A stretch of DNA of 64,000 nucleotides from IMG/VR virus record IMGVR_UViG_2872922060_000001, positions 22,371 through 86,370 of that record; one strand, written 5' to 3'. The notes below the pieces were generated by a model, which worked only from the letters and a program-made list of their open reading frames with translations, was not told the origin of the DNA and did not search any database. Shown piece after piece: positions 4,971 to 64,000 of this stretch (position 1 is its first letter; each line of letters begins with the position of its first letter). The DNA comes from a virus (lineage: Duplodnaviria > Caudoviricetes). The position numbers and the translations under genes were made by a program.

Positions 4971-5113
4971 AGGCGGGAGGTCCCTGGGCCCCTTGGCGGG
5001 GGCTCATCCTCTACCGCCTGGCCGCTGGTGTTGGCGCACCGTGCGCGGCCTTCGTTCCACGGCCCGGAGTTGGCGCTCCGAGCTAAGGCCCGTCTCTTCC
5101 GGTTGGCAGCCGG
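4971..5113 (+). promoter_or_regulatory. Structured repA leader with four TTGGC(G/A)-loop hairpins
   Basis: GGGCCCC-TTGGCG-GGGGCTC (4986-5005), GGTG-TTGGCG-CACC (5027-5040), CGGAG-TTGGCG-CTCCG (5065-5080), CCGG-TTGGCAG-CCGG (5099-5113). Confidence 0.7.
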
Positions 5114-5206
5114 CCGAGTCGAGCGAAGTGCTTCTTCCACCGAAGCGAACCACCCACCGAAGCGGGGGCCCTTTTGTGCCTCCGCGTTACCGGAAGCAGG
5201 TTCATA

Positions 5207-6688
5207 GTGCCTCAGCGCACCCCTTCTTGTCAGCTTGGCAACCCGGTAGCGCCCGAAACGCGAGGAATCTCCCCCCGCGCGGGCGACACCCAGCGCCCCC
5301 AGAACACCCCCGACACGCACACCCCCACCCCCACTTTCGAACACCCGACCGATTACAGTGACAGCCACGGTCGTGGCGGCAGCCTCCCGGTGATCGCAGC
5401 TAGCCAGCAATGGCTGCACGCCACGACCGGCCGCATCACCACCTGCCCCCACTCCTGGATGACCGCCGTCCACTGGGTCGACCAGCTCGCGACCAAAGGC
5501 CACTACACGCCCACCCAGAAGCACGGCCCGAAGTGGGGACCCACCACGGTCGCCATCGCGCAGGAGATCGCCGCGCTGAAGGAGTGCCGGCCGTCCGTCG
5601 ACTACCTCGCCCGCAAGCTGAAGGTGTCCGAGCGGACCGTGAAGTACCACCTGGCGATGCTCCGCGAGACCGGGCTGCTGGTGTACCGCACCAAGGGCAC
5701 CCGCCTCCGCGGCGAAGGCAACCGGGCGTCCGTCTTCGAGCGGACCATCCCCGCCGTGTTCGACGAGGACATGGGCATCCGCACGGTCGGGGAGGGTGCA
5801 ACGCGCCGGCCGGTCGGCGCCGCACCGGAGTCCCGCACCTTGCTGGGCAAGCTCGCGAAGAAGGCCGCCCGGAAGGTCCGCCGCACCCGTCGCCGCGCCC
5901 CTGCTTCGCGCGGGCAGCGTTGCACCCTAATGCAGGGGGGTACTACTGGCACTTCTACTGCGGCTGGTACTCACTCTCCCTCTGAGGCAGAGCTCGCAAG
6001 CGGGAAAGCCAAGTCCCCCACCCCGAAGTCGTCCAAGCGCGGCACCCGCACCCTGAACAAGGTCGGTCGCCGTTACCAGCTCGCCCGCCAGCTCATCGCC
6101 CAGGTGCCCTGGCTCCGCGGCGCCTCCGTCGCCCGCATCGCGTGGATCGTCCGCCACGTCGCCGACGCCGGCTGGACCGCCCTCGAAGTCCAGGCCGCCG
6201 CCGAACGCCTCGTCTGCGACAAGGAGCCGCGCCGCCCGTCCGCCGTCCTCGCGTACCGGCTCGCGTCCTGCCACCTGCTGTACACCACCCCCGAGCGGCG
6301 CCGGGTCCTGGTGGAGGACTGGCAGGACTCCCGCCGCGCCCAGCAGACCCGCCACGACGAGCACGCCTTCCAAGACCTCGGCACCGGCCCCCGCAGCGTC
6401 GCCGCCCGCCGCGCCGTGGACGAGGCGTTCGCCGCGATCCAGGCCCGCCTCGCCCCCGCCGTGGAGGAACCCGCCGACCAGGCACCGCTGATGCTCGAGG
6501 ACCTCACCAAGGACGAGATCGTCGCCCTGCGCCTGGACGCCATGCGGGACCCGGCGCTGATCCTGTCCGCGCTCGAGCTGCTCGGCGAACGCGACACCCG
6601 CCGCCTGTACACCAACCGCCTCGTCGACCAGACCCTCGCCCTCGAGACCATCCACGCCCGCCGCGACACCCTCGCCCCCGCCTTCTGA
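5207..6688 (+). CDS. Plasmid replication initiator (winged HTH)
   Basis: wHTH PSVDYLARKLKVSERTVKYHL..LRETGLL; lies near parAB and DciA, with a structured leader; start uncertain. Confidence 0.7.
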   Translation: MPQRTPSCQLGNPVAPETRGISPRAGDTQRPQNTPDTHTPTPTFEHPTDYSDSHGRGGSLPVIAASQQWLHATTGRITTCPHSWMTAVHWVDQLATKGHYTPTQKHGPKWGPTTVAIAQEIAALKECRPSVDYLARKLKVSERTVKYHLAMLRETGLLVYRTKGTRLRGEGNRASVFERTIPAVFDEDMGIRTVGEGATRRPVGAAPESRTLLGKLAKKAARKVRRTRRRAPASRGQRCTLMQGGTTGTSTAAGTHSPSEAELASGKAKSPTPKSSKRGTRTLNKVGRRYQLARQLIAQVPWLRGASVARIAWIVRHVADAGWTALEVQAAAERLVCDKEPRRPSAVLAYRLASCHLLYTTPERRRVLVEDWQDSRRAQQTRHDEHAFQDLGTGPRSVAARRAVDEAFAAIQARLAPAVEEPADQAPLMLEDLTKDEIVALRLDAMRDPALILSALELLGERDTRRLYTNRLVDQTLALETIHARRDTLAPAF

Positions 6689-6698
6689 GGAGACCGCG

Positions 6699-7031
6699 AT
6701 GCCCGAAACCCCCGGCCACGTCGACTTCCAGACCATGCCGCTCGCCAACGGCGGCACCTGGACCCGCCTGTCCCGCCTGACCGACGGCCGCGTCATGTGC
6801 TGCCTCTGCTTCGAGTACGTCACCCGTGACCAGCTCAACCCCGTTGACGGTGGCGTGGAAGACGTCTGCACGACCTGCGCTCGCAAGGAAGCCGCAGTAG
6901 CGAAACTCCCAGCGAGTGTGTGCCGAGTGACGCTGGACCCGGGCTGGGGCGGCGACATACAGGTCTGCACGCGCCCCAGAGGCCATGACGGCTACCACCG
7001 GGACGACCGCGCGATGGGAGAGCCGGCATGA
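6699..7031 (+). CDS. Zinc-ribbon hypothetical protein
   Basis: CCLC, CTTC, C..P.GH.G.H; GAGGAG RBS. Confidence 0.65.
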   Translation: MPETPGHVDFQTMPLANGGTWTRLSRLTDGRVMCCLCFEYVTRDQLNPVDGGVEDVCTTCARKEAAVAKLPASVCRVTLDPGWGGDIQVCTRPRGHDGYHRDDRAMGEPA

Positions 7032-7831
7032 CGGACACCCCGCAACTGTCCGGGAGGGACCTCGCCCGGCAGGCCCTCGCCGCCTACAAGGCCACCGCCC
7101 GCACTCAGCCCAGCACCCCCGCCAAGTCGGTCCGCAAGCGGACCGTCCGCCGCGGCCCCGGCCGCGACCCCGTCACCCTCGCCGACGCCATCACCGCCCT
7201 CGGAGCCGACCTGCCCCTCGACGCGGGCATCGCCGGCGGCAATCTCCTCGACCAGTGGCCCGCCCTCTGCCCCCAGTACGCCGACCGCGTCCATCCCGTC
7301 GCCTACGACGAACAGCGTGGCCGCCTCGACCTCCGCCCCGGCAGCCACGCCTACGCCGCCCAGCTCCAACTCCTCGGCGGACAACTCGCCAAACAGATCA
7401 ACGACAAACTCGGCCGCACCGTCGTCCGCAGCATCCGCGTCCTGCCCGTCGGCAACGTGCCCCAACACGACGCGTATACCGCGGTATACGCCGACCCCTC
7501 CGAGACGACCCAGCCGGAGGCGCCAGTGAAAACCCGGGAGACCGCCTCCGCCGGCTACCGGGCCGCCCTCGCCGCCGCACTCGCCCACAAACCGCCACGC
7601 GAACCGCAGAACCCGTACATCGCCGAAGCGATCCGCGCCCAGGACGCCGCCCTCCGCGCCAAGCGCCTGCCCGAGTCCGAAGACCGCGACGCCTACTGGG
7701 CACAACGAGACGCCGCGGAGAAAACCGGGCCCGAACCCGGCAGCATCGACGCGTCCATCGCCGCAGCGATCGCCCGCAAACGGCAAGAGCAGACCGGCAG
7801 CGAGCCCCGCCGGCTCTTCGGCGCCGCGTAG
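7028..7831 (+). CDS. DciA/DUF721-family protein with C-terminal extension
   Basis: LLDQWPAL..YADRVHPV.Y...GRL.L...SHAYAAQLQLL..QL..QIN..LG..VVRSIRV pattern. Confidence 0.75.
   Translation: MTDTPQLSGRDLARQALAAYKATARTQPSTPAKSVRKRTVRRGPGRDPVTLADAITALGADLPLDAGIAGGNLLDQWPALCPQYADRVHPVAYDEQRGRLDLRPGSHAYAAQLQLLGGQLAKQINDKLGRTVVRSIRVLPVGNVPQHDAYTAVYADPSETTQPEAPVKTRETASAGYRAALAAALAHKPPREPQNPYIAEAIRAQDAALRAKRLPESEDRDAYWAQRDAAEKTGPEPGSIDASIAAAIARKRQEQTGSEPRRLFGAA
7474..7489. repeat. parS candidate 1, GTATACCGCGGTATAC
   Basis: Perfect 16-bp palindrome, four copies around parAB. Confidence 0.8.
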
Positions 7832-7840: not shown

Positions 7841-8272
7841 GTGCACCTCGCCCTCATCGCACTGACCGGTAGCCGTCGCTGGCCGGACGTGCCCCTACTC
7901 GAGGACACGCTGATGCTGGTCTGGCACGACGCCCTCCAGGACGGCTACACCGGCATCGAGCTCATGCACGGCTGCGCCGAAGGTGCCGACACCATCGGCG
8001 GCCAATGGGCCCGCCGCCACGGCATCCCCGTCCGGGAACGACCCGCCGACTGGCAAGGCCCCTGCGGGCCCGAGTGCCAGCCCGGCCACCGGCGCCGCAA
8101 CCGCCGCGGCCTCGACTACTGCCCCCTCGCCGGCCACCGCCGCAACCAGCAGATGGTCGACGAACGGCCAGCCCTGTTTGTGGCCGCCTCGTACCGGAGC
8201 TCCAGTGGCACCGCGGACTGTGTCCGCCGGGCTAAGGCAGCCGGGATCCCCGTGTACCAGATTCCGATCTGA
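7841..8272 (+). CDS. SLOG/DUF2493 (YspA-like) protein
   Basis: TGSR.W, HGCAEGAD, AGHRRNQQM, SSGTADC. Confidence 0.8.
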   Translation: MHLALIALTGSRRWPDVPLLEDTLMLVWHDALQDGYTGIELMHGCAEGADTIGGQWARRHGIPVRERPADWQGPCGPECQPGHRRRNRRGLDYCPLAGHRRNQQMVDERPALFVAASYRSSSGTADCVRRAKAAGIPVYQIPI

Positions 8273-8776: not shown

Positions 8777-9073
8777 ATGACCACACCCACCACCGGCTAC
8801 GAGGCCGAACCGTCCGACGTTGCCGCCGAGGTCGCCTCCCACCTGGACGACATCACCGACCCGCTGGAGCGCTACCACCGGGCCACCGCCGCGCAGGCCC
8901 ACCACCAGGCGGTCGCCTCCAAGTTGCAGCAGGAGCGGGACAAGGCGCTCGCCCAGCTGAATGCGGACGGCGCCTCCTACGAGAAGCTTACGAGCCTGGT
9001 GCCGGGCATGACCCGCTCCGGGATCCAGAAAGCGGTGGAGCGCGGCCGGCGTCTGTCTCATGACCCCAGCTGA
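8777..9073 (+). CDS. Small HTH DNA-binding protein
   Basis: GASYEKLTSLVPGMTRSGIQKAV; RBS present. Confidence 0.7.
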   Translation: MTTPTTGYEAEPSDVAAEVASHLDDITDPLERYHRATAAQAHHQAVASKLQQERDKALAQLNADGASYEKLTSLVPGMTRSGIQKAVERGRRLSHDPS

Positions 9074-9698
9074 GCGGGCCGAGACGAAGCAGCTGATTGT
9101 CCACGCTCTCGCCCACGGCTCCCAGGTGCGTCAAGCCGTAGCGGCACAGGGCATCGGCTATCCGACATTCGCCCGGTGGCGGCGCTCCGACCCCGTCTTC
9201 GACGCCCAGGTCAGTGAGGCGCTACGGAACAGCGGGCGCGCCCAACATGCCGTCCGACCAACGTCCCGGTACCTGACGTCGCCGGTCGCCCGGGCAGGTA
9301 AGGCCCGGGTACTGGAGGCGCTGGTCTGGGGGGCGACTATGAACGAGGCAGCCGATGCGGCCGACGTGTCCGAGTCGACGGTCAGGGCCTGGCGGCGCGA
9401 GGACCCGGACTTCGACCGAGCTGTGTTCCGTCTATGGCGGGCTGGCCCTGAGGCAAATCGCCCTCTCCCTCTCGCCCCTGATCCTGCCTGCGCGGCGGAC
9501 GGCTGCTCCGAGACCGATCTGCACGCGCGGGGCCTGTGTGTCCGGCACTACCACCAGCAGCGGCGCACAGGACGGCTACGCCCGGCTGGCTGGGTATACG
9601 GGAGGCAGGACTGCTCGGTCGTGGGGTGCGATGAGCCGCACCGGGCACAGGGGTTTTGCGCCGCGCATTACGAGACGACGTACCGTCGCGCAACTTAA
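9060..9698 (+). CDS. Tandem HTH protein with two C-terminal Cys3His zinc fingers
   Basis: Two T...WRR.DP.FD repeats; two C....C......G.C..HY motifs. Confidence 0.7.
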   Translation: MTPAERAETKQLIVHALAHGSQVRQAVAAQGIGYPTFARWRRSDPVFDAQVSEALRNSGRAQHAVRPTSRYLTSPVARAGKARVLEALVWGATMNEAADAADVSESTVRAWRREDPDFDRAVFRLWRAGPEANRPLPLAPDPACAADGCSETDLHARGLCVRHYHQQRRTGRLRPAGWVYGRQDCSVVGCDEPHRAQGFCAAHYETTYRRAT

Positions 9699-10188: not shown

Positions 10189-10212
10189 CGGCGTATACCG
10201 CGGTATACGCCG
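10189..10212. repeat. parS candidate 2 (24-bp palindrome, core 10193-10208)
   Basis: CGGCGTATACCGCGGTATACGCCG. Confidence 0.85.
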
Positions 10213-10259: not shown

Positions 10260-10275
10260 GTATACCGCGGTATAC
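10260..10275. repeat. parS candidate 3
   Basis: GTATACCGCGGTATAC upstream of parA. Confidence 0.85.
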
Positions 10276-10388: not shown

Positions 10389-11054
10389 ATGCCCTCCTCA
10401 GTTCTGGTCATCTCCATCGACCCACAGGGATCCACCCTCTGGTGGGCCGACCGCATCGGTGACGACCTCCCCTTCGACTTCGCCACCGCCCACGACGACC
10501 CCGACAGCCTCAGCAACCTGATCTCCCTCAAGGAATCGGGCGCGAAGGTCCACGTCGTCGCCAACCAGAAGGGCGGGGTCGGCAAGACGACGATAGTGAT
10601 GAACCTCGCCGCTACCGCCCAGGACGTCCTCAAGGCAGGCAACCAGGTACGGCACGTGTTCATCGACACCCCCGGCTCCATCGAGGACGAACGCCTCCTG
10701 ACCGCAGCCCTCGAAGTCGCCGACGACGTGATCGTGCCCCTCCCCCCGGACCCGCTCGCGTTCGACCCGACCACCCGCACCATCGAGAAGGTCATCAAGC
10801 CCCGCGGCCTCCCCTTCAAGGTCATCATCAACAACTGGGACGCCCGCGACGGCAAGACCGACATGCTCGACACCCGAGCATTCGTCACAGCGCAGGGCTG
10901 GTCCCTCGCAGAGACCGGGATCCGCCGGTACCGCATCCACACCCGCGCCCCCGCCGAAGGGAAGCTCGTCACCCACTACCCCGACAGCGGTACCACCCTC
11001 AGAGCCCGCCAGGACTTCCTCAAGCTCGCCCTCGAGCTGGGCTACGGGGGCTGA
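10389..11054 (+). CDS. parA: ParA partition ATPase with permuted motif order
   Basis: NQKGGVGKTT (deviant Walker A), IDPQGS (A'), FIDTPG (Walker B); adjacent to parB. Confidence 0.9.
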   Translation: MPSSVLVISIDPQGSTLWWADRIGDDLPFDFATAHDDPDSLSNLISLKESGAKVHVVANQKGGVGKTTIVMNLAATAQDVLKAGNQVRHVFIDTPGSIEDERLLTAALEVADDVIVPLPPDPLAFDPTTRTIEKVIKPRGLPFKVIINNWDARDGKTDMLDTRAFVTAQGWSLAETGIRRYRIHTRAPAEGKLVTHYPDSGTTLRARQDFLKLALELGYGG

Positions 11055-11056: not shown

Positions 11057-12082
11057 GTGGCAGGAAAGCGCGTATCCCTGGCCTCCCTCGCCGGGGCCCC
11101 TGTCGAGACCGTGCCCGGCGCCTCACGCCCCGACCTGATCCACGTCCCCCCGAGCACCGTCGCCCCTACCCCCCTCAACCCGCGGCGCGCCTTCGACGAG
11201 ACCGAGCTGGCCGAACTCGGCGAAGACATGCGAGGAGGACAGCTCCAGCCGTGCGTGGCCGTGAACAAGGCCGCCTACCTGAAGCTGTACCCCGAGCACG
11301 CCGACCAGCTGCCCGCTGGTTGCCGGTACGTCATGGCCGCCGGCGAACGCCGCTGGCGCGCCGCCGTCAAGGTCGGCCTCGAGCACCTCGACCTGCTGCT
11401 GCGGCACGACCTCACCGAATCCCGCGTCCGGTTCCTCGCCGCGGTGTTGTCGGAGAACGTGCAGCGCGCCAACTTCAATCCCATCGAGGAAGCCGACGGC
11501 CTGCGTGCCATGCTCGACCTCCACGACGGCAACCAAGCCGCGGCAGCGCGAGCCATGGGCAAGTCGAAGCAGTGGTTCAACCAGCGCATCGGCCTGCTGC
11601 GGCTGACGGATCAGATGGTGCAGCTGGTCCTCGAAGGGAAACTGACTGCGTTCCGCGAGATGCGCCGGTACGCGGCTATGCCGCCGGAGGAGCAGTATGC
11701 AGCGTGGCAGGCGGACCAAGAGCAGCCGCGTCCGCCCAAGCAGCCATCCGTCGAGTTGAACCCGGGGAAGATTGCTGGCACCGTTCAGCAGCAGCAGGCG
11801 TATACCGCGGTATACCCGCCCGCCGACACAGCCGCCGCAGCCTCACCGGCACCGGTCCCAAGCCAGCCAGAGGCCACAGCAGCAGCGGAACGCATCCCCG
11901 AATCACGGACCGCCATTCAGGCGGACACGCCAGCGGCCCAGCCATCAGCGAGACGATTCCCCTACGACGATGGCCTGTCCGCGGGACAACTCCTGATCCA
12001 TAAGATGCCGCCGGCGGAGCTGGAGAAGGTGACCGACATGCTCATTGCTCACCGGGAGAAGCAGACCGCTGGCGTCAGCTGA
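11057..12082 (+). CDS. parB: ParB CTPase-type partition protein
   Basis: NPRR.F, AGERRWRA, ENVQR..NPIEEA, HTH. Confidence 0.92.
   Translation: MAGKRVSLASLAGAPVETVPGASRPDLIHVPPSTVAPTPLNPRRAFDETELAELGEDMRGGQLQPCVAVNKAAYLKLYPEHADQLPAGCRYVMAAGERRWRAAVKVGLEHLDLLLRHDLTESRVRFLAAVLSENVQRANFNPIEEADGLRAMLDLHDGNQAAAARAMGKSKQWFNQRIGLLRLTDQMVQLVLEGKLTAFREMRRYAAMPPEEQYAAWQADQEQPRPPKQPSVELNPGKIAGTVQQQQAYTAVYPPADTAAAASPAPVPSQPEATAAAERIPESRTAIQADTPAAQPSARRFPYDDGLSAGQLLIHKMPPAELEKVTDMLIAHREKQTAGVS
11800..11815. repeat. parS candidate 4, inside parB
   Basis: GTATACCGCGGTATAC. Confidence 0.8.
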
Positions 12083-14273: not shown

Positions 14274-14315
14274 ACCGCGCTACGCATTGCGATGCAATGC
14301 ATAGCGCGGTACGGT
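14274..14315 (+). promoter_or_regulatory. Operator/promoter copy 1
   Basis: Inverted repeat ACCGCGCTACGCATTGC-GAT-GCAATGCATAGCGCGGT; TTGCGA-N17-TACGGT. Confidence 0.75.
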
Positions 14316-48684: not shown

Positions 48685-48706
48685 CCCACCCCTTACGGAG
48701 ACCCTG

Positions 48707-51711: not shown

Positions 51712-51942
51712 TCAGCCGTAATAGTCGTCCGTGTACTCCGGGCCCCCAGGCTCAGACTCACACCCCTCATACCGCTCCGGCGCCCCATGCGTCAGCACCA
51801 GCCCATACGACTGCGGCACAAAGCCACACCCCTTGTCCGTCCACCGGCCAGCCGCCACCGTCCACACAATCAGCAACACCAACACACCAACGATCTTCTG
51901 CGTGCGGGACGGCCTCCACCCACGCCTCTCGGTTTCGCTCAT
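51712..51942 (-). CDS. Small single-TM protein
   Basis: IVGVLVLLIVWTVAAG; start inferred. Confidence 0.45.
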   Translation of the reverse strand: MSETERRGWRPSRTQKIVGVLVLLIVWTVAAGRWTDKGCGFVPQSYGLVLTHGAPERYEGCESEPGGPEYTDDYYG

Positions 51943-52012
51943 GCCGCGCACCATGACACCCCACGGCCACCAGGGGGAACACAACAGCGAAAATCGGCGA
52001 TCATCCGTAACA

Positions 52013-52026
52013 AGGCGCGGGGCCTG
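52013..52026 (+). promoter_or_regulatory. Late-gene motif AGGCGCGGGGCCTG copy 1
   Basis: Identical 14-mer before terS, portal and scaffold genes. Confidence 0.7.
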
Positions 52027-52063
52027 ACAACCACACAAACAACCGAGCGGGAGCCCCACCGCC

Positions 52064-54116: not shown

Positions 54117-54401
54117 CCAGCGCTAACGTCTGCTCCAAGATGGCTGTGGTTAGAGACGACAGGCCACTACAACAGCGATCGTAGGTAGCGACAGAGGCTT
54201 CTCTGGGCAGTCCAAAAGACGGGATCGTATGCCTCGTGGATTATTAATCCACGGGGATGGAAGGTACATTGGCAGGCGGCTAGAGCAGTGCGGAAAGTAG
54301 TGCACTGGCCGCACAACGAAACAGGACCGCCCCAACCTGGCTGGTCGGGAACGGCCCTGTCTCTTCACAAGTGGGCTGTCGGACCAGGAGCTACGGCTTC
54401 G

Positions 54402-54479
54402 TCATCCCTGGAGTAGCAGCTCCAGGAGAGCGACGACGAAGCACCAGAAGCTCCAGTCCGGCTGTCCGTTTTCGTCCAT
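54402..54479 (-). CDS. 25-aa hydrophobic peptide MDENGQPDWSFWCFVVALLELLLQG
   Basis: GAGGTG RBS, TAGACT -10 near 54593-54598, downstream hairpin. Confidence 0.5.
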   Translation of the reverse strand: MDENGQPDWSFWCFVVALLELLLQG

Positions 54480-54809
54480 TCGTCACCTCATCTGCGGCTC
54501 CTGCGACTTTTGGCCTGGCGAGCCGCACCCTCCGGGCCTAGGCGCCGGAGGGCACATGCAGTGACGGGTCGGTAACGAACACCCGCTGGAAGTCTAAGGC
54601 GTCCCGGGTAGTCCTCCGGACCACCCCCGTGGACAAACCTTCACAACTCCGGCCTATCGGGGGCTAGATGATCACGAAGAGCCACCTTTCGCCACCCCAT
54701 CGGGTGGTCTGACGGTCGAACACACCCCCGCTCACCCCGCCGTTCCGGTGAACCGAACGAGCCCGGCCAGGGGGGAAGCCCCTCCTCCCGCGGCCCTACC
54801 CTGATCACA

Positions 54810-54823
54810 AGGCGCGGGGCCTG
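54810..54823 (+). promoter_or_regulatory. Late-gene motif copy 2
   Basis: AGGCGCGGGGCCTG just after a TACCCT -10-like hexamer. Confidence 0.7.
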
Positions 54824-54845
54824 GAGCGGAGTGGAGAGGGATGCC

Positions 54846-56738: not shown

Positions 56739-56760
56739 GAAATGTGCTGCACTTGGATCT

Positions 56761-56774
56761 AGGCGCGGGGCCTG
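56761..56774 (+). promoter_or_regulatory. Late-gene motif copy 3
   Basis: AGGCGCGGGGCCTG before scaffold RBS. Confidence 0.7.
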
Positions 56775-56800
56775 AACTGTCCATGGGAGGACTGTCTGTA

Positions 56801-57574
56801 ATGCGTGCCCCCGCGCAGCACCGCCGCCCCGGTCTCAACGCCGCCCACGGCTGGGCCCATCCCTACACGGGCATCGAGGCCCTGGCCACGTTCTACAACG
56901 ACGGCGGCGACCCGCCCACCCCCGCGGACATCCCCCCGAAGCGCACCACCACCACCGCGGGAGACCCGGACACGGTCGTCATGCCGCAGGAGAAGTTCAC
57001 GCAGAACATGACCGAACAGAGGCGCCGCGGCCGGCACGCCGCCTACCGGGAGATAGCCGAAGCCGCCGGCATCGACTTCGACGTCGACACCTTCGACCCG
57101 AAGGCGTTCGCCGCGCAGTTCAAGGAAGCGCAGGCCGCACGGCAGGCCCTTCTCACCGAAGAGCAGCGCCGCGCCGAGGAGCTCGCGCAGAAGGAGCAGG
57201 CTCTCGCCGCGCGGGAGCAGGCAGCCGCCCAGCGCGAAGCCGAAGCCGCCCGCCTCGCCCGCGACGTGAAGATCCGTGCCGCTCTCGTCCGGCTCGGCGC
57301 CACCGGCGACGACCTCGACGACGCCGCCGCCCTCATGCGCATCGGTGACGACGCCGACGACGACGCCATCACCCAGGCCGCCGAAGCTCTCAAGGCCCGC
57401 CGCGGCGAACTCTTCGGCGCCACCCCCGCGCCGGCCCCGTCGCCGCTTCCCCCCGCGCCCGGCGGCGCCCCCGCGGGCGGCGGCACCCCCCGCCCGGCCC
57501 CCAGCAAGGACGACGCCAAGGCCAGGGCCCGCGAGCTGGCCGTGAAGATGGGCTACGCCAAGCCCGCCGCCTGA
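56801..57574 (+). CDS. Capsid scaffolding protein
   Basis: Ala/Glu coiled coil, Pro/Gly tail; position before head genes. Confidence 0.75.
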   Translation: MRAPAQHRRPGLNAAHGWAHPYTGIEALATFYNDGGDPPTPADIPPKRTTTTAGDPDTVVMPQEKFTQNMTEQRRRGRHAAYREIAEAAGIDFDVDTFDPKAFAAQFKEAQAARQALLTEEQRRAEELAQKEQALAAREQAAAQREAEAARLARDVKIRAALVRLGATGDDLDDAAALMRIGDDADDDAITQAAEALKARRGELFGATPAPAPSPLPPAPGGAPAGGGTPRPAPSKDDAKARARELAVKMGYAKPAA

Positions 57575-57682
57575 CCACAGGCGACCGAAGACCGAGGGAC
57601 CACGCCTCTCCTCCCGTGGACGACACCCACCCGGTGTCCGCCCCCCCAGTAGTACATCCTCATTCCACGGGAGGAGACCGGC

Positions 57683-58102
57683 ATGGACATCCAGCCGCTC
57701 ACCACGCAGGAAACCGTCACCGCGGACCGTCGCTGGCTGATGTCGACGTTCGGCACCGAGACCAACAAGACCATCACCCTCGACACCAGCACCTTCACCG
57801 AGCACACCCACTGGCTGCCGACCAACCGGCACGTCAACCAGCGCGTCCTGAAGTCCGGCCTGCCCCTCGGCCGGATCACCGCCTCCGGGCTGTACGGCAT
57901 CTACGACTCCGCCGCCACCGACGGCCGCGAGGTCTTCGCCGGCCTCCTCGAGACGGAGACCGCCTACAACCCCACCTCGACGAAGGTCGGCGCCGCGCTC
58001 CGCATCATCGGCGACATCGACGCCTCCAAGCTCCCCGTCGCGTTCACGCCGCCCGCCGCCGCGAACCGCACCGACTCCCTCCACTTCTCCAACCTGGCCT
58101 GA
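57683..58102 (+). CDS. Head decoration protein
   Basis: LKSG.PLG.IT.SG.YG.Y...A.DG....AG.L. Confidence 0.8.
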   Translation: MDIQPLTTQETVTADRRWLMSTFGTETNKTITLDTSTFTEHTHWLPTNRHVNQRVLKSGLPLGRITASGLYGIYDSAATDGREVFAGLLETETAYNPTSTKVGAALRIIGDIDASKLPVAFTPPAAANRTDSLHFSNLA

Positions 58103-58119
58103 GAAGGGACTGACAGACC

Positions 58120-59172
58120 ATGATGCTCGAGGCCCTGCTCAGGGACATCACCCCGACCGAGATCATCGCGTTCGCCCGCGCCGTGCAGACGCCCGCGGAC
58201 TACGCCCTCACCCTGAACGTCATGCCGGAACGGCAGATCCAGGGCGTGAAGTTCCGCACCCGCCGCACGTCCCGCCGGGTCAACGCCGCGAAGTACCGCG
58301 CGTACGACGCGCAGACCCCCGTCGCGTCCCGCGAGGTCAAGCGCATCGAGACCGAGGGCATGCTGCCCCCGCTCGGCCAGAAGTACCTCGTCGGCGAACT
58401 CGAGACGATCCTCCTCGCGGCCCGCCGCGGCGCCGACGCCTCCGAACTCGTCGAGGCGCTCTACGACGACGTGGCCGCCCACGTCCTGTCCATCCGGTCC
58501 CGCCTGGAGCTGGCCGCCGGCGACCTCCTGACCGACGGCAAGTTCACCCTGGCCAACGAGAACGGCCTCACCGTCGAGTACGACGCCCAGGTCCCCGCGG
58601 CCAACATGCCGACCGCCGCCGTGCCGTGGACGGACCCGACCGCGGACGCCATCGCCGACGAACTCGCCTGGCTGGAGACGCTGCGCGCCTCCGGTGCACC
58701 GATGCCGGAGAAGGTCGTCACCTCCTACAAGGCCCGCGCGCTCCTCGCCGCGAACAACGCCTACCGCGCCGCCTACTACGGGTCGGTGAACCCCTCCAAC
58801 ACGCCGACCGCCACGCTGGCCCCCAACGAGGTCGACACCGTCCGCGCCCGCTACAACCTGCCGCCCATCGAAATCTACGACGTGCAGATCCCCAAGGACG
58901 ACGGCACCATGGCCCGCCCGATCCCCGAGGACCGGTGGGTGATGGTCCCGCCGAACCGGCAGCAGTGGGGCGAAACCCAGTTCGGCATCACCGCCGAATC
59001 CATCGAGCTGACGACCGGCGACAACCCGGCCATCGAGCTCGCGGAAGCGCCCGGGATCATCGTCACCCACGGCTGGAAGGACGACCCGGTCCAGGTCTAC
59101 ACCAAGGGCTCGGCCGTGGCGATGCCGGTCCTGTACGTGCCGGACATCCACATCACCGCGAAGGTGTTCTGA
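58120..59172 (+). CDS. Major capsid protein (lambda gpE-like, HK97 fold)
   Basis: 350 aa; AA.YRA.D, LPP, RLE, W.DPTA....D, DP.......A.AMP. Confidence 0.9.
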   Translation: MMLEALLRDITPTEIIAFARAVQTPADYALTLNVMPERQIQGVKFRTRRTSRRVNAAKYRAYDAQTPVASREVKRIETEGMLPPLGQKYLVGELETILLAARRGADASELVEALYDDVAAHVLSIRSRLELAAGDLLTDGKFTLANENGLTVEYDAQVPAANMPTAAVPWTDPTADAIADELAWLETLRASGAPMPEKVVTSYKARALLAANNAYRAAYYGSVNPSNTPTATLAPNEVDTVRARYNLPPIEIYDVQIPKDDGTMARPIPEDRWVMVPPNRQQWGETQFGITAESIELTTGDNPAIELAEAPGIIVTHGWKDDPVQVYTKGSAVAMPVLYVPDIHITAKVF

Positions 59173-59174
59173 TC

Positions 59175-59462
59175 ATGGCCAAGCTCGCAGCCACCGTCCA
59201 CGTGAAGGACCCGCGCACGCACCAGATGGTGCAGCTCGACGCCGGCACCGAACCGGAGCCCGAGCTGGCCGCGCTGGTCACCAACCCCGACGCCTGGGAA
59301 GGCGGCAAGGTCCCCGCCACGGCCAAGAAGACCGCCGACACCACCTCCACGTCCACCGACGACGGAGACGACGGCGGCGACAAGCCGGCCGCGCGTAAGA
59401 CCGCGGCCCGTAAGCCGGCTCGGGGCCGGAACGCCGCTGACGAGGGCACCAGCGGCGACTAG
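59175..59462 (+). CDS. Small head-associated protein
   Basis: P....AALVTNP.AW, basic tail; position. Confidence 0.65.
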   Translation: MAKLAATVHVKDPRTHQMVQLDAGTEPEPELAALVTNPDAWEGGKVPATAKKTADTTSTSTDDGDDGGDKPAARKTAARKPARGRNAADEGTSGD

Positions 59463-59561
59463 CGGAGTGCGGGCCCGCCCCACGTGGTGGGGGCGCCACC
59501 CCGGCGGGCCCGCACCCGCATCCCCTGCCCTCACCAACCCAGCCCTGAGAGGACACCCGCC

Positions 59562-59903
59562 ATGGCACTCACCCCCGCGGTCCAGGCATGGCTCCTCTCC
59601 GTGCTCGGCACCAACACCAACATCACCGACCTCGAAACCCGCTACACCCGCCTCGGCTCCGCCCGCGCCGTCGCCCTGGAAGTCCTCCGCCAACGCCTCG
59701 CCGACCTGCGCGCACAGCCCTCCACCATCAACGTCTCCACCGTCGTCGGCATCTCCTACGTGGAGAACATCAAGTCCTACGAGCGGCAGATCGAAGCGCT
59801 CGAGAACGGCGAGAACCCGGCCCCCGACGACCCCACCAGCCCGGATGGCGACAGCCTGGGCGGCATTGGCCTGCTCTACCTGAGGGAAAGGCCCCGCCGA
59901 TGA
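59562..59903 (+). CDS. Head-tail adaptor (putative)
   Basis: Size and position. Confidence 0.6.
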   Translation: MALTPAVQAWLLSVLGTNTNITDLETRYTRLGSARAVALEVLRQRLADLRAQPSTINVSTVVGISYVENIKSYERQIEALENGENPAPDDPTSPDGDSLGGIGLLYLRERPRR

Positions 59904-60745
59904 CCACCCCCGTCCGGCGCCGCGCCCGCACCCTCCGCCAGCGCATCCTCGGCTACATAACCGGCGCCGTCGACCGGCTCCGAGCAGCGTGGAGCATCCT
60001 CGCCACCGCCCAGACCCGGCTCCTCAACGCCCTCACCGACATCCGGCCGGGCCGCTCCGCCGGTACCGGTACCCGGCTGCGCGCCGCGCTCGCCGCGTTC
60101 AACACCAGCCTCGGTGCCTTCGCCCGGACCGCCGGTGCGTTTGCTGAACGCTGGGCCAGCAGCGACCTGCCCCTGATCTACCGGGAAGGCGCCTGGACGA
60201 TGCTCGACAACGCCGCCCGGCCCAACCGCCTGTTCCAGTGGACCGACCGCCACCGCGGCGCCGTCACCAGCTTGTCCGCGCAGTACTACGCCGACCTCAC
60301 CGCCCGCATCACCGAGGCCCTGCGCCGGGCCCGTGCCTTTCTTCGCGCCGTACAAGACGCCGCCCGCGATGCCCTTTCCGTCCGCATCGACGCCGCTGCG
60401 CTGCGCCGCGACCACCCGCTGGACACCGTCATCTACGCCAACAACGCCCGGCACCCCGTCGAAGCGTGGGCCCGCGCCGCCATTACCTGGCAGGCCGTCA
60501 CCACCGCCAACACCGCCGCCGCCCGCACCGCGCTGGACGAGCTGGGCACCGATTGGGTGGAGGTCCGAGACGGGCCTGACTGCGGTTGGACCAGCCACGA
60601 CGACCCTGACCGCGCCAACCGGACGCTGCGCACCGTGCAGGACGCCCTCGCCTACCCCTCAGCACACCCCCACTGCATCCGGGAGTTCCTGCCCCGCCTC
60701 GACCTGATCGGCCGAGCTGAAATCCGCTCTGGAGCGCTGCTGTGA
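59900..60745 (+). CDS. Minor capsid / head morphogenesis (MuF-like) protein
   Basis: V.DG.DC, HPHC.R.F.P. Confidence 0.7.
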   Translation: MTTPVRRRARTLRQRILGYITGAVDRLRAAWSILATAQTRLLNALTDIRPGRSAGTGTRLRAALAAFNTSLGAFARTAGAFAERWASSDLPLIYREGAWTMLDNAARPNRLFQWTDRHRGAVTSLSAQYYADLTARITEALRRARAFLRAVQDAARDALSVRIDAAALRRDHPLDTVIYANNARHPVEAWARAAITWQAVTTANTAAARTALDELGTDWVEVRDGPDCGWTSHDDPDRANRTLRTVQDALAYPSAHPHCIREFLPRLDLIGRAEIRSGALL

Positions 60746-61125
60746 CCGAGACCCCAGCCGAGCCGCAGGCGCACGGCGTCCGCATCGACGCCCAGCCCGG
60801 CCATGCCACCATCACCATCGACGGCACCCCCCTGCCTGTCGGCACCGTCACCGGGTACACGCTCCAGCACGACATCGTCGGGGGTCTCCCCCTCGTCGTC
60901 CTGCACACCCGACAGTCCGAGGCAGTGGCCTTCGAGGGGCTCGCGCGGGTCGCCGTGGGTATCGCTGAAGGCCCCGCCGACATCGTGGCCGGCTTCCTCG
61001 CCCAGATCGACCCGGCCGAGCTGGAGAACGCCGCTCTGAACCGGGACGACCTCGGCACCGACAAATACGACCTGACCCGGGCCATGCTCCGGCAGCTCAC
61101 CGACTGGGCGCGAGGGCAGCAGTAA
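60742..61125 (+). CDS. Hypothetical protein
   Basis: Overlaps within the structural operon. Confidence 0.65.
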   Translation: MTETPAEPQAHGVRIDAQPGHATITIDGTPLPVGTVTGYTLQHDIVGGLPLVVLHTRQSEAVAFEGLARVAVGIAEGPADIVAGFLAQIDPAELENAALNRDDLGTDKYDLTRAMLRQLTDWARGQQ

Positions 61126-61583
61126 TGGCCGGCCTTGACAACGCGCTCGCCGGAGTCGTCACCTGGATCCAGGCCAACCTCATGGTGGACACCGTCCGTA
61201 TCGTCCGCCCCGCAACCGGCGACCCAGTCCTCAACCCAGACACGGGCCGGCTCGAGTACCCCGAGCCCGCACTGGTCTACGAGGGGATCGGCGCCGTCAT
61301 CGCTGCCGGTGCGCCAGGCGGAATCAGCTCCCTGCCGTCCGCCATCCTCCCCTGGGCGGAGGAGACGATGTCCCCTGCCCGCCTGCTCACCCCCCTCACG
61401 GCGCCGATCCCGGCCCGGGACGATCTGGTGACCGTCGTCGCTGTCCACAACCCCGCCAATGCGGCACTCATCGGACGGTCCTGGTTCTGCCAGGACCCCG
61501 GCCGGGCCTCCACCGTGGAAGTCGTCCGCATCACCCCCATGGACATGAAGCAGGCGCCCCGCACCCAGGGGAGTACACCGTGA
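61125..61583 (+). CDS. Head closure/stopper protein (DUF6093-like)
   Basis: M.DTVRI.R.....NP.TG......VYEG. Confidence 0.7.
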   Translation: MAGLDNALAGVVTWIQANLMVDTVRIVRPATGDPVLNPDTGRLEYPEPALVYEGIGAVIAAGAPGGISSLPSAILPWAEETMSPARLLTPLTAPIPARDDLVTVVAVHNPANAALIGRSWFCQDPGRASTVEVVRITPMDMKQAPRTQGSTP

Positions 61584-61969
61584 ACCTGGACGACCTCGCC
61601 GGCCGACTCGAGCGCGCCGCCGACCAGATCGGCCCGGTCACGGAGCGCCGGATCCGGGCCGTGGGCGCCGCCGGCGTCGCCCGGATCCGGCAGAACGCGT
61701 CCGGCCGGCCCGGGCCGAACGTCATCACCGGCCAGTACCGCGCCTCGTGGCGAGCCGTTGCTGAGCGGATCCCTCACGGCGCCGAGTGCACCATCGGCAC
61801 GAACGCGCCGCAGGGACGGCGCCTCGAGTTCGGCTTCTGGGACATGACCGACAGCATCGGCCGGCACTTCTTCCAGCCTCCCTTCCCGCACGTCCAGCCA
61901 GCCCTCGGCTTCATCGAGGACACGCTGCACGAGCAGATGCGCGCCGCCGTGAGGGAGCTGTTCGAATGA
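61580..61969 (+). CDS. HK97 gp10-like tail completion protein
   Basis: TG.YR.SW, GTN.P...RLEFG, P.PH..PA. Confidence 0.8.
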   Translation: MNLDDLAGRLERAADQIGPVTERRIRAVGAAGVARIRQNASGRPGPNVITGQYRASWRAVAERIPHGAECTIGTNAPQGRRLEFGFWDMTDSIGRHFFQPPFPHVQPALGFIEDTLHEQMRAAVRELFE

Positions 61970-62430
61970 TCCAGAAACGACTGGTCACGAACTGGGTGAA
62001 GGCCACCCTCAGCGCCGCCTCCGGCATGCCGGTGGGGGAAAGCCGCGCGCCCACGTCGGGAGCCGCGCCGCCCTACTACCTGCTGTACTCCGTCGACACG
62101 CGAGTGTCCGGCGCTCCTTTTTCCGACCTCAGCGAGGACGGCTCGTTCGTCTACCAGATCACGTCCGTGTCCGGCCCGGACCCGAACGTGCCACAGTCCA
62201 CCGCCGACCTCGACCAACTCGAGTGGATGGCTGACAAAGCGCGTTCCACGTTCCTCGGCCGGGACCGGGCTACTGGCCTGTGGCTGCACCCGCTCACCGT
62301 GCCTGGGCTGTTCTGCATGACCCGGTCCTTGGACGTGGAGTGGGGCGCCCAGCCGGGGGGAACGTCGGAGCAGGAAGCCGCGATAATGACCTATGTGCAG
62401 CGGTTCAGGTTCAACCTGACCCCTGCCTGA
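61966..62430 (+). CDS. Tail terminator protein
   Basis: PPY..LY, YQIT.V; position before tail tube gene. Confidence 0.7.
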   Translation: MIQKRLVTNWVKATLSAASGMPVGESRAPTSGAAPPYYLLYSVDTRVSGAPFSDLSEDGSFVYQITSVSGPDPNVPQSTADLDQLEWMADKARSTFLGRDRATGLWLHPLTVPGLFCMTRSLDVEWGAQPGGTSEQEAAIMTYVQRFRFNLTPA

Positions 62431-62552
62431 GCCCCTGAGGGCTCGTGCACAACCGCACCGCGGCGGGCCCCGCGGACGCCACCACCAGGTGGCCGCCACA
62501 CCAAGCCGTGTAGCAGGGGCCCCCTCTTGGCCCCTATCCGCGAGGGGCCACC

Positions 62553-63023
62553 ATGAGGTTCAACCGCAAGGGCACCACCCGTATCTACTACGTCCCGACG
62601 ATCGCCGCGACCACACTGATCCCCACCACAGCGGAGATCGACGCCGGTACGGACTACACCGCGCAGATCAACGCGATCGACGGCTGGTCGCTGGAGAACA
62701 CCCCGATCGAAACCCCGGACATGGCGTCCACCTTCGTGAGCAAGATCGGCGGTGACGACTCCGCAGCCGACTCCAGCCTCACCTTCTACGAGGACTCCAC
62801 CACCGACACCATCGAGACGGACCTCGCCAAGGGCACGTCCGGCTACATCGTCATCTTCTCCAAGGGGAAGACGCCCGGCGCGAAGGGCATGGACGTCTAT
62901 CCGGTCACCGTGGTCAGCAACAGCAAGGCGTACACCACGGACAACGAGGCCGCGAAGATCACCGTCCAGTTCACGATCACGCAGCGGCCCGTCTTCAACC
63001 AGACCGTGCCCACCGCCGCCTAA
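62553..63023 (+). CDS. Major tail (tube) protein
   Basis: PTIA....PT.AE..AG.D, beta-rich; position. Confidence 0.85.
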   Translation: MRFNRKGTTRIYYVPTIAATTLIPTTAEIDAGTDYTAQINAIDGWSLENTPIETPDMASTFVSKIGGDDSAADSSLTFYEDSTTDTIETDLAKGTSGYIVIFSKGKTPGAKGMDVYPVTVVSNSKAYTTDNEAAKITVQFTITQRPVFNQTVPTAA

Positions 63024-63119
63024 CCCCGGCCGCCACCCCACCAGCCCCCGGCCGGGCCCGTGACGTACACGGGAAGGGCGCCACGGCGCCCGGCCGGGCC
63101 TTCCCGAAGGACACCCGCC

Positions 63120-63641
63120 ATGACCACCTGGGACGCCCTCGCCAAGCGCCTCGACCGCGTGAAGAAGCCGGTCCGCACCTTCGCGCTGTGCGACGACCCC
63201 GACATCCGCGACCGATACGTCACCGCCAAGCGCGAAGCCGAAAGGGCCGACACCTACCTGCAATCCCTCTCCCCGGACGCCGACCCCCAGGCCCGCGCCC
63301 TGGTCGAAAAGCAGGCCAAGGATGCCCACGCGGAACTCGCCGAGGCGAAGGAGGCGTACGAGGCCCACACCGTCACCCTGCGCTTCCAGGCCCTGGAACA
63401 GCAGCAACTCGAGACCCTTCTCGCCGAGCACCCGCCGACCGAGCAGGACGAAGCCGACGGCGCCGAGTTCAACAGCGCCACCTTCATGCCCGCGCTGATC
63501 GCCGCCGCGTCCCTGGACGGCATGCCCGTCGAGGCCGCCGACCGCTACCTGAAGACCTGGACACCGGCTGACGCACGCGCCCTGTGGCACGCGGCCTGGT
63601 CCGTGCAGCACACCCAGCGGACCGACCTGGGAAAAGGCTGA
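63120..63641 (+). CDS. Tail assembly chaperone (gpG)
   Basis: Follows tail tube gene; ends at slippery site. Confidence 0.8.
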   Translation: MTTWDALAKRLDRVKKPVRTFALCDDPDIRDRYVTAKREAERADTYLQSLSPDADPQARALVEKQAKDAHAELAEAKEAYEAHTVTLRFQALEQQQLETLLAEHPPTEQDEADGAEFNSATFMPALIAAASLDGMPVEAADRYLKTWTPADARALWHAAWSVQHTQRTDLGKG

Positions 63642-64000
63642 TCGACGATGCCGTCTTCCGCGCCGAGATGGAGCTGTGCCACAAGTGGGGCATCCCCCAC
63701 TCGCAGTTCCGCGGGCACGGCGACGGCACCTGGACCAGCCTCGACCGTCGCAAAGCCCTCGCCTACGCCCACTACCTCAAGCAGGTCTGCCCCTCGTGCG
63801 GCACCCGCGCCGAGGAATGGGACGAGGCACTCGGGGGCGACGAGGACGCCTACCGGGCCGTCACCCACCGCTGCATCGGATGCCAGCTCATCGCCGACAA
63901 GCAGAAGACCGTCCCCGACGGCGACGAAGGGCACGGCGTGAAAGTCCTGCTGATCCCGGCCAGCGTGCACGCCGCGCTGCAATTCCAGCACACCCATTGA
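63629..64000 (+). CDS. Tail assembly chaperone gpGT extension via -1 frameshift at GGGAAAA
   Basis: G GGA AAA at 63629-63635; the -1 frame is open to 64000. Confidence 0.8.
   Translation, partial: GKRLIDDAVFRAEMELCHKWGIPHSQFRGHGDGTWTSLDRRKALAYAHYLKQVCPSCGTRAEEWDEALGGDEDAYRAVTHRCIGCQLIADKQKTVPDGDEGHGVKVLLIPASVHAALQFQHTH

Follow-up and report, generated by a model that had tools for sequence, protein, structure and literature searches.

Introduction

Enterobacterial phage-plasmids (P1, N15 and similar elements) are temperate tailed phages kept as low-copy plasmids with their own partition systems, and they are not known to have a conjugation system. In Streptomyces, the circular plasmid-phage pZL12/phage ZL12 (NC_013420 = GQ919031, 90,435 bp) was reportedly described by Zhong et al. 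2010 (J Bacteriol 192:3747). The GenBank record of pZL12 contains no repA or tra gene names. PMC4170104, citing pFP4, states that plasmid-phages undergo conjugation in the episomal state and also form infective particles. A further circular element, pSLE1 of Streptomyces leeuwenhoekii (86,370 bp), is described in PMC4487206 as syntenic with pZL12 and as carrying phage genes, ParAB and two putative integrases; the identities to pZL12 reported there are 62% for ParA, 41% for ParB and 59% for the type III polyketide synthase (PKS). The TraB protein of pSVH1 has 772 aa according to PMC4447253. Here, we analyzed a 64,000-nt stretch of viral DNA, the window, which corresponds to G000:C2:22371-86370, that is, the last 64 kb of the 86,370-bp contig C2. 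Coordinates without a prefix are those of the window, and the prefix C2: denotes the whole contig. An earlier note on the window had proposed one replicon that combines plasmid maintenance, conjugation and a virion operon. The present comparison largely supports this proposal: C2 is very probably one circular, extrachromosomal plasmid-phage of the pZL12 lineage with plasmid, mating and virion modules.

Results

Collinearity of C2 with pZL12

The G000 assembly contains contigs C1 (7.90 Mb, 72.8% G+C), C2 (86,370 bp, 69.2% G+C) and C3 (132 kb). A plain listing of open reading frames (ORFs) was uninformative at such G+C (284 ORFs of at least 100 aa), and genes were called from third-position G+C (GC3), which gave 103 calls on C2; gaps were filled at relaxed thresholds. 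Against circular pZL12, 120 tblastn queries from C2 produced 48 matches representing 46 distinct genes in conserved order. The last gene of C2 (C2:86038-86370) corresponds to pZL12 44303-44007, and the first gene (C2:17-4243, the tape measure gene) corresponds to the gene adjoining it in pZL12. The contig ends in a stop codon and starts with a ribosome-binding site (RBS) and an ATG, so that closure leaves a 16-bp intergenic spacer holding the RBS. Because the terminal genes of C2 adjoin each other in pZL12, C2 appears to close on itself; its collinearity with pZL12, the end-to-start junction included, argues for one circular replicon, the topology resting on this synteny. When C2 was compared with C1 and C3 by blastn, neither another copy of it nor a long exact repeat came up; what matched were paralogues (thyX, dcd, ssb, ku and a methylase gene), a segment of 394 bp at 94% and short weak stretches. 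No tRNA genes or Rfam families were found on the window or L003. In size (86,370 bp), collinearity and lack of a detected chromosomal copy, C2 falls within the class of pZL12-type circular extrachromosomal elements of ~85-94 kb. The earlier note was well founded in choosing pZL12 for comparison, and on the same data its questions about circularity and extrachromosomal state are probably to be answered in the affirmative.

The earlier note had also described the element as lacking an integrase, which holds within the window. Outside it, at 2.8-5.2 kb upstream of window base 1, the replicon has two genes for tyrosine recombinases: C2:17147-18223, with a Phage_integrase domain at 55 bits, and C2:18689-19552, where the match is weak (19 bits). 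Among curated models, both come closest to Xer-type recombinases (XerC model, 69 bits, below the cut-off). The product of C2:17147-18223 is 93% and 90% identical to genes on just two family plasmids, whose capsids are 63-65% identical, and its homologues are otherwise scattered across unrelated plasmids, the pattern of an exchangeable cassette. We searched for att-like repeats between C2 and the chromosome; the best near the recombinases (33 bp at 94% and 121 bp at 74%) were not convincing. Multimer resolution is the likelier role of the recombinases since neither an att site nor an integrated copy was found, and the Xer-like recombinase of C2 probably resolves multimers and does not integrate the element. 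Occasional integration may occur by way of the two recombinases, which counts against a strictly extrachromosomal life.

Virion genes and their junction with the transfer operon

The siphovirus operon of C2 is complete for packaging, head, tail and lysis and is homologous to that of pZL12 (Table 1). All of the structural and lysis genes tested were full length and 35-67% identical to their pZL12 counterparts; the same is true of length for the partition, GntR/UTRA and transfer genes against their homologues, in agreement with the earlier impression that the genes are intact. The distance from the translocase stop (51480) to the start of the small-terminase-like (TerS-like) gene (52064) is 583 bp, close to the ~600 bp given in the earlier note. 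The hairpin and the small convergent gene in this interval suggest that the transfer and virion operons are separate transcription units. The segment 51667-51902, which includes the small membrane-protein ORF and the hairpin, is 78.7% identical to C3:91490-91722 on the linear plasmid of the same strain.

In pZL12, too, the translocase gene is next to those for packaging, and the same is seen on contigs of plasmid size in three sampled genomes (G161, G369 and G020); a translocase-virion junction is found in plasmid NZ_CP107973 as well, there with another virion type (PBSX terminase, P22-type coat). We considered the possibility that the arrangement is a composite artefact, either an actinomycete integrative and conjugative element (AICE) or plasmid inserted beside a prophage or a misassembly at ~51.5-52 kb, as had been raised in the earlier note. 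The separation of the two blocks into distinct transcription units by a hairpin and a convergent ORF, the resemblance of the intervening DNA to a piece of C3, and the exchange of both modules as cassettes among relatives would all be in keeping with such an origin. However, the same junction occurs in circular pZL12 and in four independent relatives, and the megablast matches of plasmid CP108843 span 44557-63996, that is, across the junction. Neither block is flanked by a recombinase, an att repeat, a tRNA or an insertion sequence (IS), the G+C of the junction is even (0.67-0.69), and the 236 bp in common with C3 amount to a small gene with its terminator, not an assembly seam. An AICE beside a prophage was rejected, the recombinases of C2 being Xer-like and no att repeat, integrated copy or tRNA having been found, and misassembly was rejected on account of the same junction in pZL12 and relatives; we regard an artefact of either kind as extremely unlikely. 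The transfer-virion junction of C2 is, from the sequences compared, not accidental.

The capsid protein had matches on 34 PLSDB plasmids, 33 of which belong to Streptomyces or Kitasatospora (47-79% identity), and 32 of the 34 plasmids measure 84,833-94,072 bp. This tight size band fits a capsid-imposed limit. The packaging of C2 is probably headful. A headful-like mechanism is also what pZL12 is said to use, and headful packaging would explain the size of 84.8-94.1 kb in these 32 plasmids. The virion unit that starts 583 bp past the translocase would make a particle by way of its terminase, portal, capsid, siphovirus tail and endolysin, and by analogy with pZL12 we infer that C2 produces particles. 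It is conceivable that the virion module is a relic and that C2 is a conjugative plasmid of plasmid-phage descent making no infective particles, or only defective or transducing ones. Consistent with a relic, the GC3 of the large terminase (TerL) gene (0.78) is below that of its neighbours, a 714-bp stretch without a called gene lies between TerL and the portal, and the cargo (Ku, PKS, PycTM) shows selection for more than lysis. The full-length structural and lysis genes noted above argue against decay, and the capsid plasmids keep to their narrow band against 62-494 kb for translocase plasmids without a capsid match, as if the capsid still limited size. We consider a relic unlikely and favor a particle-forming element.

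Relatives on plasmids and in Streptomyces genomes

The earlier note had called the class rare, which the survey contradicts. We sampled 400 other species of the genus Streptomyces and found a full-length capsid homologue of at least 49% identity in 34 (~1 in 12), a translocase of at least 47% identity in 15, and both in five. Capsid and translocase are on one contig in four of these (G020, G139, G161 and G369), and the assembly of the other (G026) is fragmented. In PLSDB the translocase had 77 plasmid matches, the best 60 of which were compared; among the matches listed it is found on at least 18 of the 34 capsid plasmids, while the translocase plasmids without a capsid match measure 62-494 kb, with copies of 62-65% identity on plasmids of 62-320 kb. 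In one genome (G020), a C2-type translocase is combined with a pZL12.73c-type membrane protein as a mosaic. The family appears to keep its layout and size while exchanging cassettes, since transfer and virion types swap at the same junction. Three genomes (G041, G202 and G131) do not conform: their capsids are 69-71% identical to that of C2, and these reside in elements of the chromosome or of large contigs with a terminase only ~32% identical and no translocase, which is a point against the plasmid-phage reading of C2. In two of these elements (G041:C1:4.18-4.28 Mb and G202:C1:3.62-3.72 Mb), 31-35 kb separate the head genes from the connector and tail genes.

MOB-suite typed all 34 capsid-bearing plasmids as non-mobilizable, because TraB-type transfer is without a relaxase. 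Plasmid-mobility and phage-plasmid surveys will therefore undercount such elements.

The 10-kb transfer operon

The GntR/UTRA regulator gene is divergent from the transfer operon and occupies the position of TraR/Kor. Four products of the operon have hydrophobic segments. The 375-aa membrane protein matches phrog_16651 (E 5e-55) and, below threshold, Sigma70_r4 (16 bits); the DUF2637 protein that holds this position in NZ_CP107973 shows no similarity to it. The 594-aa protein matched no Pfam, NCBIfam or PHROG family, and the atlas returned unnamed actinomycete clusters only; a TraA-like atlas cluster was set aside since its score of 0.75 was below the lead level. Searches of Pfam, NCBIfam and PHROG produced no KilB, Spd or DUF2637 match among the transfer-operon proteins. 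The module had been read in the earlier note as GntR/KilB/Spd/FtsK; the GntR/UTRA regulator and, by its modelled fold, the FtsK component are borne out, while KilB and Spd are without family support.

The assignment of the translocase is based on its fold and motifs. The AlphaFold model (pLDDT 72.7) gave the FtsK motor 6t8o as the best Foldseek match (E 8.8e-10), followed by the FtsK-like coupling protein TcpA (4.5e-9) and EccC; the protein matches the FtsK/SpoIIIE-like phrog_1358, and the Walker A motif GxTGSGKGG and D486-E487 are invariant in 24 homologues. The N-terminus has two weak hydrophobic segments, and at the C-terminus the model shows helices followed by a hairpin at 728-768 (DprA_WH 18 bits, below the cut-off of 22.9). 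Sequence models weigh against the assignment, with scores below cut-off for Pfam FtsK (16 vs 24 bits) and for NCBIfam plasmid_TraB NF041214 (25.2 vs 800), and a genome-wide PF01580 search at E<=0.001 did not reach the protein. A phmmer and profile search against the Protein Data Bank (PDB) gave nothing significant (FtsK E 0.5). By fold and by invariant Walker A and B motifs, the protein is an FtsK/SpoIIIE-type P-loop motor, and it falls outside NF041214. For relaxases two families were searched: PF03432 had no match in the genome, and PF08751 matched only on C1 and C3, not on C2. General Pfam scans of ~70 C2 proteins turned up no type IV secretion system (T4SS) families.

The 375-, 594- and 774-aa transfer proteins gave no tblastn match to pZL12.73c, 72c and 71c at 1e-5 and no blastp match better than E 0.01. 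The comparison with pZL12 proposed earlier thus holds over 46 collinear genes and breaks down at the three large transfer genes: a locus homologous to pZL12.71c-73c is not found on C2, though position, order and gene sizes are analogous.

In the mechanism we propose, the GntR/UTRA repressor would hold down the 10-kb operon. The translocase would act as a hexameric FtsK-fold pump anchored in the membrane and pass the plasmid, as double-stranded DNA, to an adjacent hypha, and the membrane and small proteins encoded upstream would spread the DNA through the recipient mycelium. Mating in this model needs no relaxase, and the mating function of the C2 operon would follow from the TraB paradigm. Alternatively, the operon could act within a single mycelium on behalf of the phage or the plasmid, for instance by moving the episome past hyphal cross-walls as it spreads or segregates, and have no part in mating between strains. 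That would be in keeping with the distance of the translocase from characterised TraB proteins, with a membrane protein whose family, a PHROG, occurs in phage genomes, and with an array word (see below) that does not co-vary with the recognition helix of the translocase. On the other side, the translocase occurs at 62-65% identity on many ordinary capsid-less Streptomyces plasmids of 62-320 kb and in eight sampled genomes without the capsid, and the positionally equivalent locus of pZL12 is cited in the literature as a conjugal transfer locus. An exclusively intramycelial role seems to us quite unlikely, and the two roles are not exclusive, since the same proteins do both jobs in the TraB paradigm. 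We continue to favor a role in mating.

The likeliest cis site for transfer would be the array of 20 TGAGCC(G/C) words inside the operon. The array is a real feature: 20 of the 49 TGAGCC words of C2 lie within 45011-45654, and the k-mer scan counted 16 in one 500-bp bin against a mean of 0.28. The words (nine plus, 11 minus) use all three codon phases of the 375-aa gene and both orientations, which marks them as a signal in the DNA, not a repeat in the peptide. In NZ_CP107973 a GCCGAAGC array of like density occupies the corresponding position, within the 3' portion of the membrane-protein gene, and the two membrane proteins whose genes contain the arrays are unrelated. In another genome (G107), a CGAGACC array is found in an analogous position near a pZL12.71c-type translocase. 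The array may not be the site of the translocase, for two reasons. Although the translocases of C2 and NZ_CP107973 share 78% identity and one residue distinguishes their predicted recognition helices, the array words differ; and no word clustered in both C2 and NZ_CP107973 was found except CGGCAAGG. We did not retain CGGCAAGG as a common clt word, as its four copies lie inside homologous genes and coding conservation can explain them. These copies are within 500 bp in the 594-aa gene, at 47553-48050 in C2 and at L023:18406-18900 in NZ_CP107973, and could be a conserved peptide repeat or a common DNA site.

Upstream of the regulator gene, the region 37.8-40.4 kb is low in G+C and gene-poor. A non-coding stretch of ~210 nt (39713-39926) is 71% identical to L023:9938-10148, upstream of the GntR gene of that plasmid, and could function in replication, as an origin, or in regulation. 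Elsewhere in these 2.6 kb there is neither a convincing ORF nor a match to the relatives compared. On the chromosome, C1:4052430-4066890 encodes a GntR regulator with 33% identity to that of C2, together with several short ORFs (426-576 aa) that have an FtsK_SpoIIIE domain, and is probably one or more resident AICEs.

Plasmid maintenance genes

The product of 5390-6688 is, judging from its homologues, the likeliest replication initiator. It shares 26% identity with pZL12.20c, the family occurs exclusively on plasmids (118 actinomycete plasmids), and many of its 632 homologues are on contigs of 86-94 kb, making it a hallmark of that contig class. All six PHROG matches are replication-initiator families. 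Several observations tell against this assignment: the PHROG matches are weak (E 7e-6 to 8e-4) and cover the winged helix only, Pfam gives helix-turn-helix (HTH) domains with RP-C below threshold, and the AlphaFold model (pLDDT 69.6) retrieved only generic Fur/MarR/ArsR-type winged helices with Foldseek (E >= 0.09). The profile search against the PDB gave no match and the atlas returned 'helix-turn-helix' clusters only. Repeats beside the gene were two-copy and unconvincing as iterons. The RepA of the earlier note therefore survives as a putative winged-helix initiator, not as a RepA by family or fold. The winged-helix candidate and the DciA-like protein, a possible helicase-loading factor, would initiate theta replication.

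The partition system proposed earlier as ParABS also needed correction in one part. The ORF at 7028-7831 was rejected as ParA since its product is DciA-like by Pfam, and the real ParA is encoded at 10389-11054, followed by ParB at 11057-12082. The 16-bp palindrome GTATACCGCGGTATAC occurs in four exact copies in the window, against 0.07 expected by chance, and in none on C1 and C3. A compensatory, doubly changed and still palindromic variant, GTTTACCGCGGTAAAC, is found inside parB and upstream of parA in pZL12. The comparative support for GTATACCGCGGTATAC as the putative parS is good, and ParA and ParB would partition the plasmid via the four sites. C2 thus has its own ParA/ParB system, as expected of a pZL12-type plasmid-phage. 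A protein with two HTH domains, one of which touches an Sf6 small-terminase-like model (27.6 bits vs a cut-off of 27), is encoded at 9060-9698 (+), after the DciA-like gene and before parA, at a long distance from the packaging genes.

A candidate lifestyle switch

An element with three routes of spread would need a means to choose among them, and we infer that a switch between modes exists; the WYL gene together with six 17-bp palindromes may be that switch. The WYL gene is divergent from a long early operon that runs into the window and includes methylase, WhiB, Rep, DciA-like, ParAB, RuvC-like, SSB and NERD genes. The ~150-bp divergent region has two copies of a 17-bp palindrome, one of them perfect (GCATTGCA-T-TGCAATGC) and the other with two mismatches. 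C2 has six such sites at up to two mismatches, all outside confidently called genes, whereas the 7.9-Mb chromosome has three sites, all with three mismatches, and 200 simulations of C2 gave a mean of 0.125. A related palindrome is found in the equivalent divergent regulator region of pZL12. The six palindromes have the look of a repressor regulon, with sites at the head of the early blocks and of the cargo block on the minus strand, and mode choice would operate through the WYL gene and these dispersed palindromes as repressor and operators. A point against this proposal is that no DNA-binding domain was detected in the WYL protein and nothing ties the palindromes to it. The product of the divergent gene (C2:21550-22125) had no Pfam, PHROG or PDB match, and ribbon-helix-helix motifs considered for it were unsupported and were dropped.

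Cargo genes

The type III PKS is on 24 of the 34 capsid-bearing PLSDB plasmids and represents conserved family cargo. The PKS-MmyB pair is conserved in pZL12; on some other plasmids a PKS homologue is beside an ScbR-family autoregulator receptor. The plasmid Ku is 52% identical to the chromosomal copy (C1:2961124-2961915) and could help to protect or rejoin the ends of injected linear DNA. PADLOC, applied to 10 cargo proteins, matched PycTM alone, and no partner pyrimidine cyclase was found among the neighbours; the PycTM protein may be an orphan or degenerate defence effector. The genes for ThyX and dCTP deaminase are on C2, outside the window. DNA of these two genes (C2:12986-14597) is 87% and 74% identical to the chromosomal copies, and a segment of 394 bp (C2:15538-15931) has 94% identity to C1:44684-45077, close to the end of the chromosome, which suggests that the chromosome arm and the plasmid have recently exchanged DNA.

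Table 1. Features of C2 (window coordinates unless prefixed C2:)
Feature	Position	Strand	Evidence or remark
Second, weaker WhiB-family regulator	2916-3743		Pfam Whib 29.4 bits
Candidate replication initiator	5390-6688 (432 aa; upstream TTG at 5174 gives 504 aa)	+	Winged-helix domain, long helical C-terminal part
DciA-like (DUF721) protein	7028-7831	+	Pfam DciA 34.7 bits vs cut-off 24; 47.5% identical to pZL12.18c
parS-like 16-bp palindrome GTATACCGCGGTATAC, copy 1	7474-7489		Inside DciA-like gene
YAcAr/SLOG protein	7841-8272
parS-like palindrome GTATACCGCGGTATAC, copy 2	10193-10208		Upstream of parA
parS-like palindrome GTATACCGCGGTATAC, copy 3	10260-10275		Upstream of parA
ParA partition ATPase	10389-11054	+	61.5% identical to pZL12 ParA; NCBIfam ParA_partition 72 bits, below equivalog cut-off 180
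ParB	11057-12082	+	TIGR00180 77 bits vs cut-off 58; 41% identical to pZL12 ParB
parS-like palindrome GTATACCGCGGTATAC, copy 4	11800-11815		Inside parB
17-bp operator candidate, consensus GCATTGCA-N-TGCAATGC	14284-14300		1 mismatch
RuvC-like Holliday-junction resolvase	16865-17410	+	phrog_159 E 2e-31; 64% identical to pZL12-4
WhiB-family regulator	17407-17856	+	Pfam Whib 91.7 bits
Single-strand DNA-binding protein (SSB)	18656-19183	+	Pfam SSB 104.9 bits
17-bp operator candidate	19264-19280		1 mismatch
Ku homologue	24714-25610	-	Pfam Ku 143 bits; no pZL12 counterpart
Type III PKS (PhlD/RppA-like)	29391-30479	-	59% identical to pZL12-100
MmyB-like regulator (HTH_31 + MLTR_LBD), adjoining PKS	30575-31438	-	Pfam; 60% identical to pZL12-99
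17-bp operator candidate	35966-35982		2 mismatches
PycTM (Pycsar effector) domain protein	36439-36939	-	Pfam 43 bits; PADLOC PycTM
17-bp operator candidate	37796-37812		2 mismatches; head of minus-strand cargo block
GntR/UTRA (HutC-type) regulator	40400-41164	-	Pfam GntR 51 bits, UTRA 54 bits; 78.8% identical to pZL12.80
Transfer operon, ~15 same-strand genes, ~10 kb	41383-51480	+	GC3 gene calls
375-aa membrane protein, 3 predicted transmembrane segments, weak C-terminal HTH	44523-45650	+	Occupies spread-protein position
Array of 20 TGAGCC(G/C) words, both orientations	45011-45654		clt-like cis-site candidate
DUF6197 protein	45647-46165	+	Pfam
594-aa transfer-operon protein	46900-48684	+	Kept beside translocase in G161, G369, G020
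FtsK-fold dsDNA translocase, 774 aa	49156-51480	+	N-terminal helices, P-loop motor, putative C-terminal winged helix (TraB-like layout)
Hairpin, 16-nt arms, 94% complementary	51664-51704		Terminator-like on both strands
Small convergent ORF, 76 aa	51712-51942	-	One hydrophobic segment
TerS-like protein (small-terminase position)	52064-52597	+	62% identical to pZL12.68c; phrog_645 E 1.7e-27
Large terminase TerL	52554-54116	+	Pfam Terminase_6N and 6C; 62% identical to pZL12.67c
Portal	54831-56738	+	phrog_64; 67% identical to pZL12.66c
Scaffold	56783-57574	+	phrog_2303 and phrog_3583, given jointly with decoration protein
Head decoration protein	57683-58102	+	phrog_2303 and phrog_3583, given jointly with scaffold
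Major capsid protein	58120-59172	+	Pfam Phage_cap_E 96 bits; 54% identical to that of pZL12
Head-tail connector and completion genes	59175-62430	+	phrog_5, phrog_37388, phrog_13779; collinear with pZL12
Major tail protein	62553-63023	+	phrog_2491 E 4e-39
Two genes in tail-assembly-chaperone position	63060-64000	+	phrog_19248, phrog_19456
Tape measure, Dit, minor tail proteins, fibre, endolysin	C2:17-11396		Virion operon continues past contig junction; tape measure, Dit and endolysin PHROGs
WYL-domain protein gene	C2:21004-21405 (likelier start)		Pfam WYL 41 bits; 58% identical to pZL12-31

Discussion

The kind of element represented by C2 is established since pZL12 and pFP4, and C2 opens no new category. 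What is added here is the scale, the family structure and candidate cis sites. A family-level description was not found in a limited literature search (Streptomyces phage-plasmid plus TraB) or in the available portion of the review PMC12282955, which is not proof of absence. From gene content, and following the precedent of pZL12 and pFP4, C2 would spread by three routes, and the family provides a natural system for how one replicon balances them. The candidate cis sites (parS, the TGAGCC array and the 17-bp palindromes) offer concrete handles for experiments. A wider proposal, which we put forward as a long shot, is that pZL12-like elements form a large lineage of capsid-size-limited conjugative phage-plasmids in which a regulon of the WYL protein or its divergent partner and the palindromes sets the mode, tuned by a small-molecule product of the plasmid's own conserved PKS as sensed by the adjacent MmyB-like regulator. 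If true, such tuning of mode choice would constitute a chemical communication system on a phage-plasmid.

C2 resembles pZL12 in size class, circular topology and gene order, and in its ParA (61.5%), ParB (41%), GntR (78.8%), TerL (62%), portal (67%), capsid (54%) and PKS (59%). Both have an FtsK-like gene beside the packaging genes, related parS palindromes and related palindromes in the divergent region. C2 differs in its transfer genes (375, 594 and 774 aa), which have no BLAST similarity to pZL12.73c, 72c and 71c (398, 766 and 725 aa), in its recombinases, which are unrelated to pZL12-36, and in having Ku, ThyX, dCTP deaminase and PycTM, which pZL12 is without. As for pSLE1, the size and the pZL12 identity values given for it in PMC4487206 equal those measured for C2, and C2 is possibly this already described plasmid. 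The available portion of that paper mentions conjugation genes for the linear plasmid of the strain but none for pSLE1, nor a parS, a repeat array or an operator set; it suggests that the integrases might allow chromosomal insertion, for which the C2 data give no support.

The TraB/clt/TraR/Spd system of pSVH1, as outlined in PMC4447253, has a parallel in C2: the gene for a GntR-type repressor is transcribed away from an operon that encodes small and membrane proteins, the last product is an FtsK-like translocase of ~770 aa with a motor domain and putative membrane and C-terminal DNA-recognition parts, short words are repeated in an array, and no relaxase of the two families searched was found. 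The two differ in that the similarity of C2 is marginal (NF041214 25 bits vs a cut-off of 800) with no Spd or KilB match, that the C2 operon is ~10 kb with ~15 genes, and that its array words are in both orientations inside a coding region and do not co-vary with the recognition helix. Streptomyces europaeiscabiei NZ_CP107973 (92,766 bp, circular) has the closest translocase among the matches listed (78% identical) and shares the GntR-tra layout, the size class and a tra operon abutting the virion module. Its virion module is of a different type, with a PBSX-family terminase, a P22-type coat and inverted packaging genes; its membrane protein is a DUF2637 protein unrelated to that of C2, and its array word is GCCGAAGC. 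Against phage-plasmids of the P1/N15 type, C2 adds a one-motor double-stranded DNA transfer module of the sort typical of mycelial actinomycetes.

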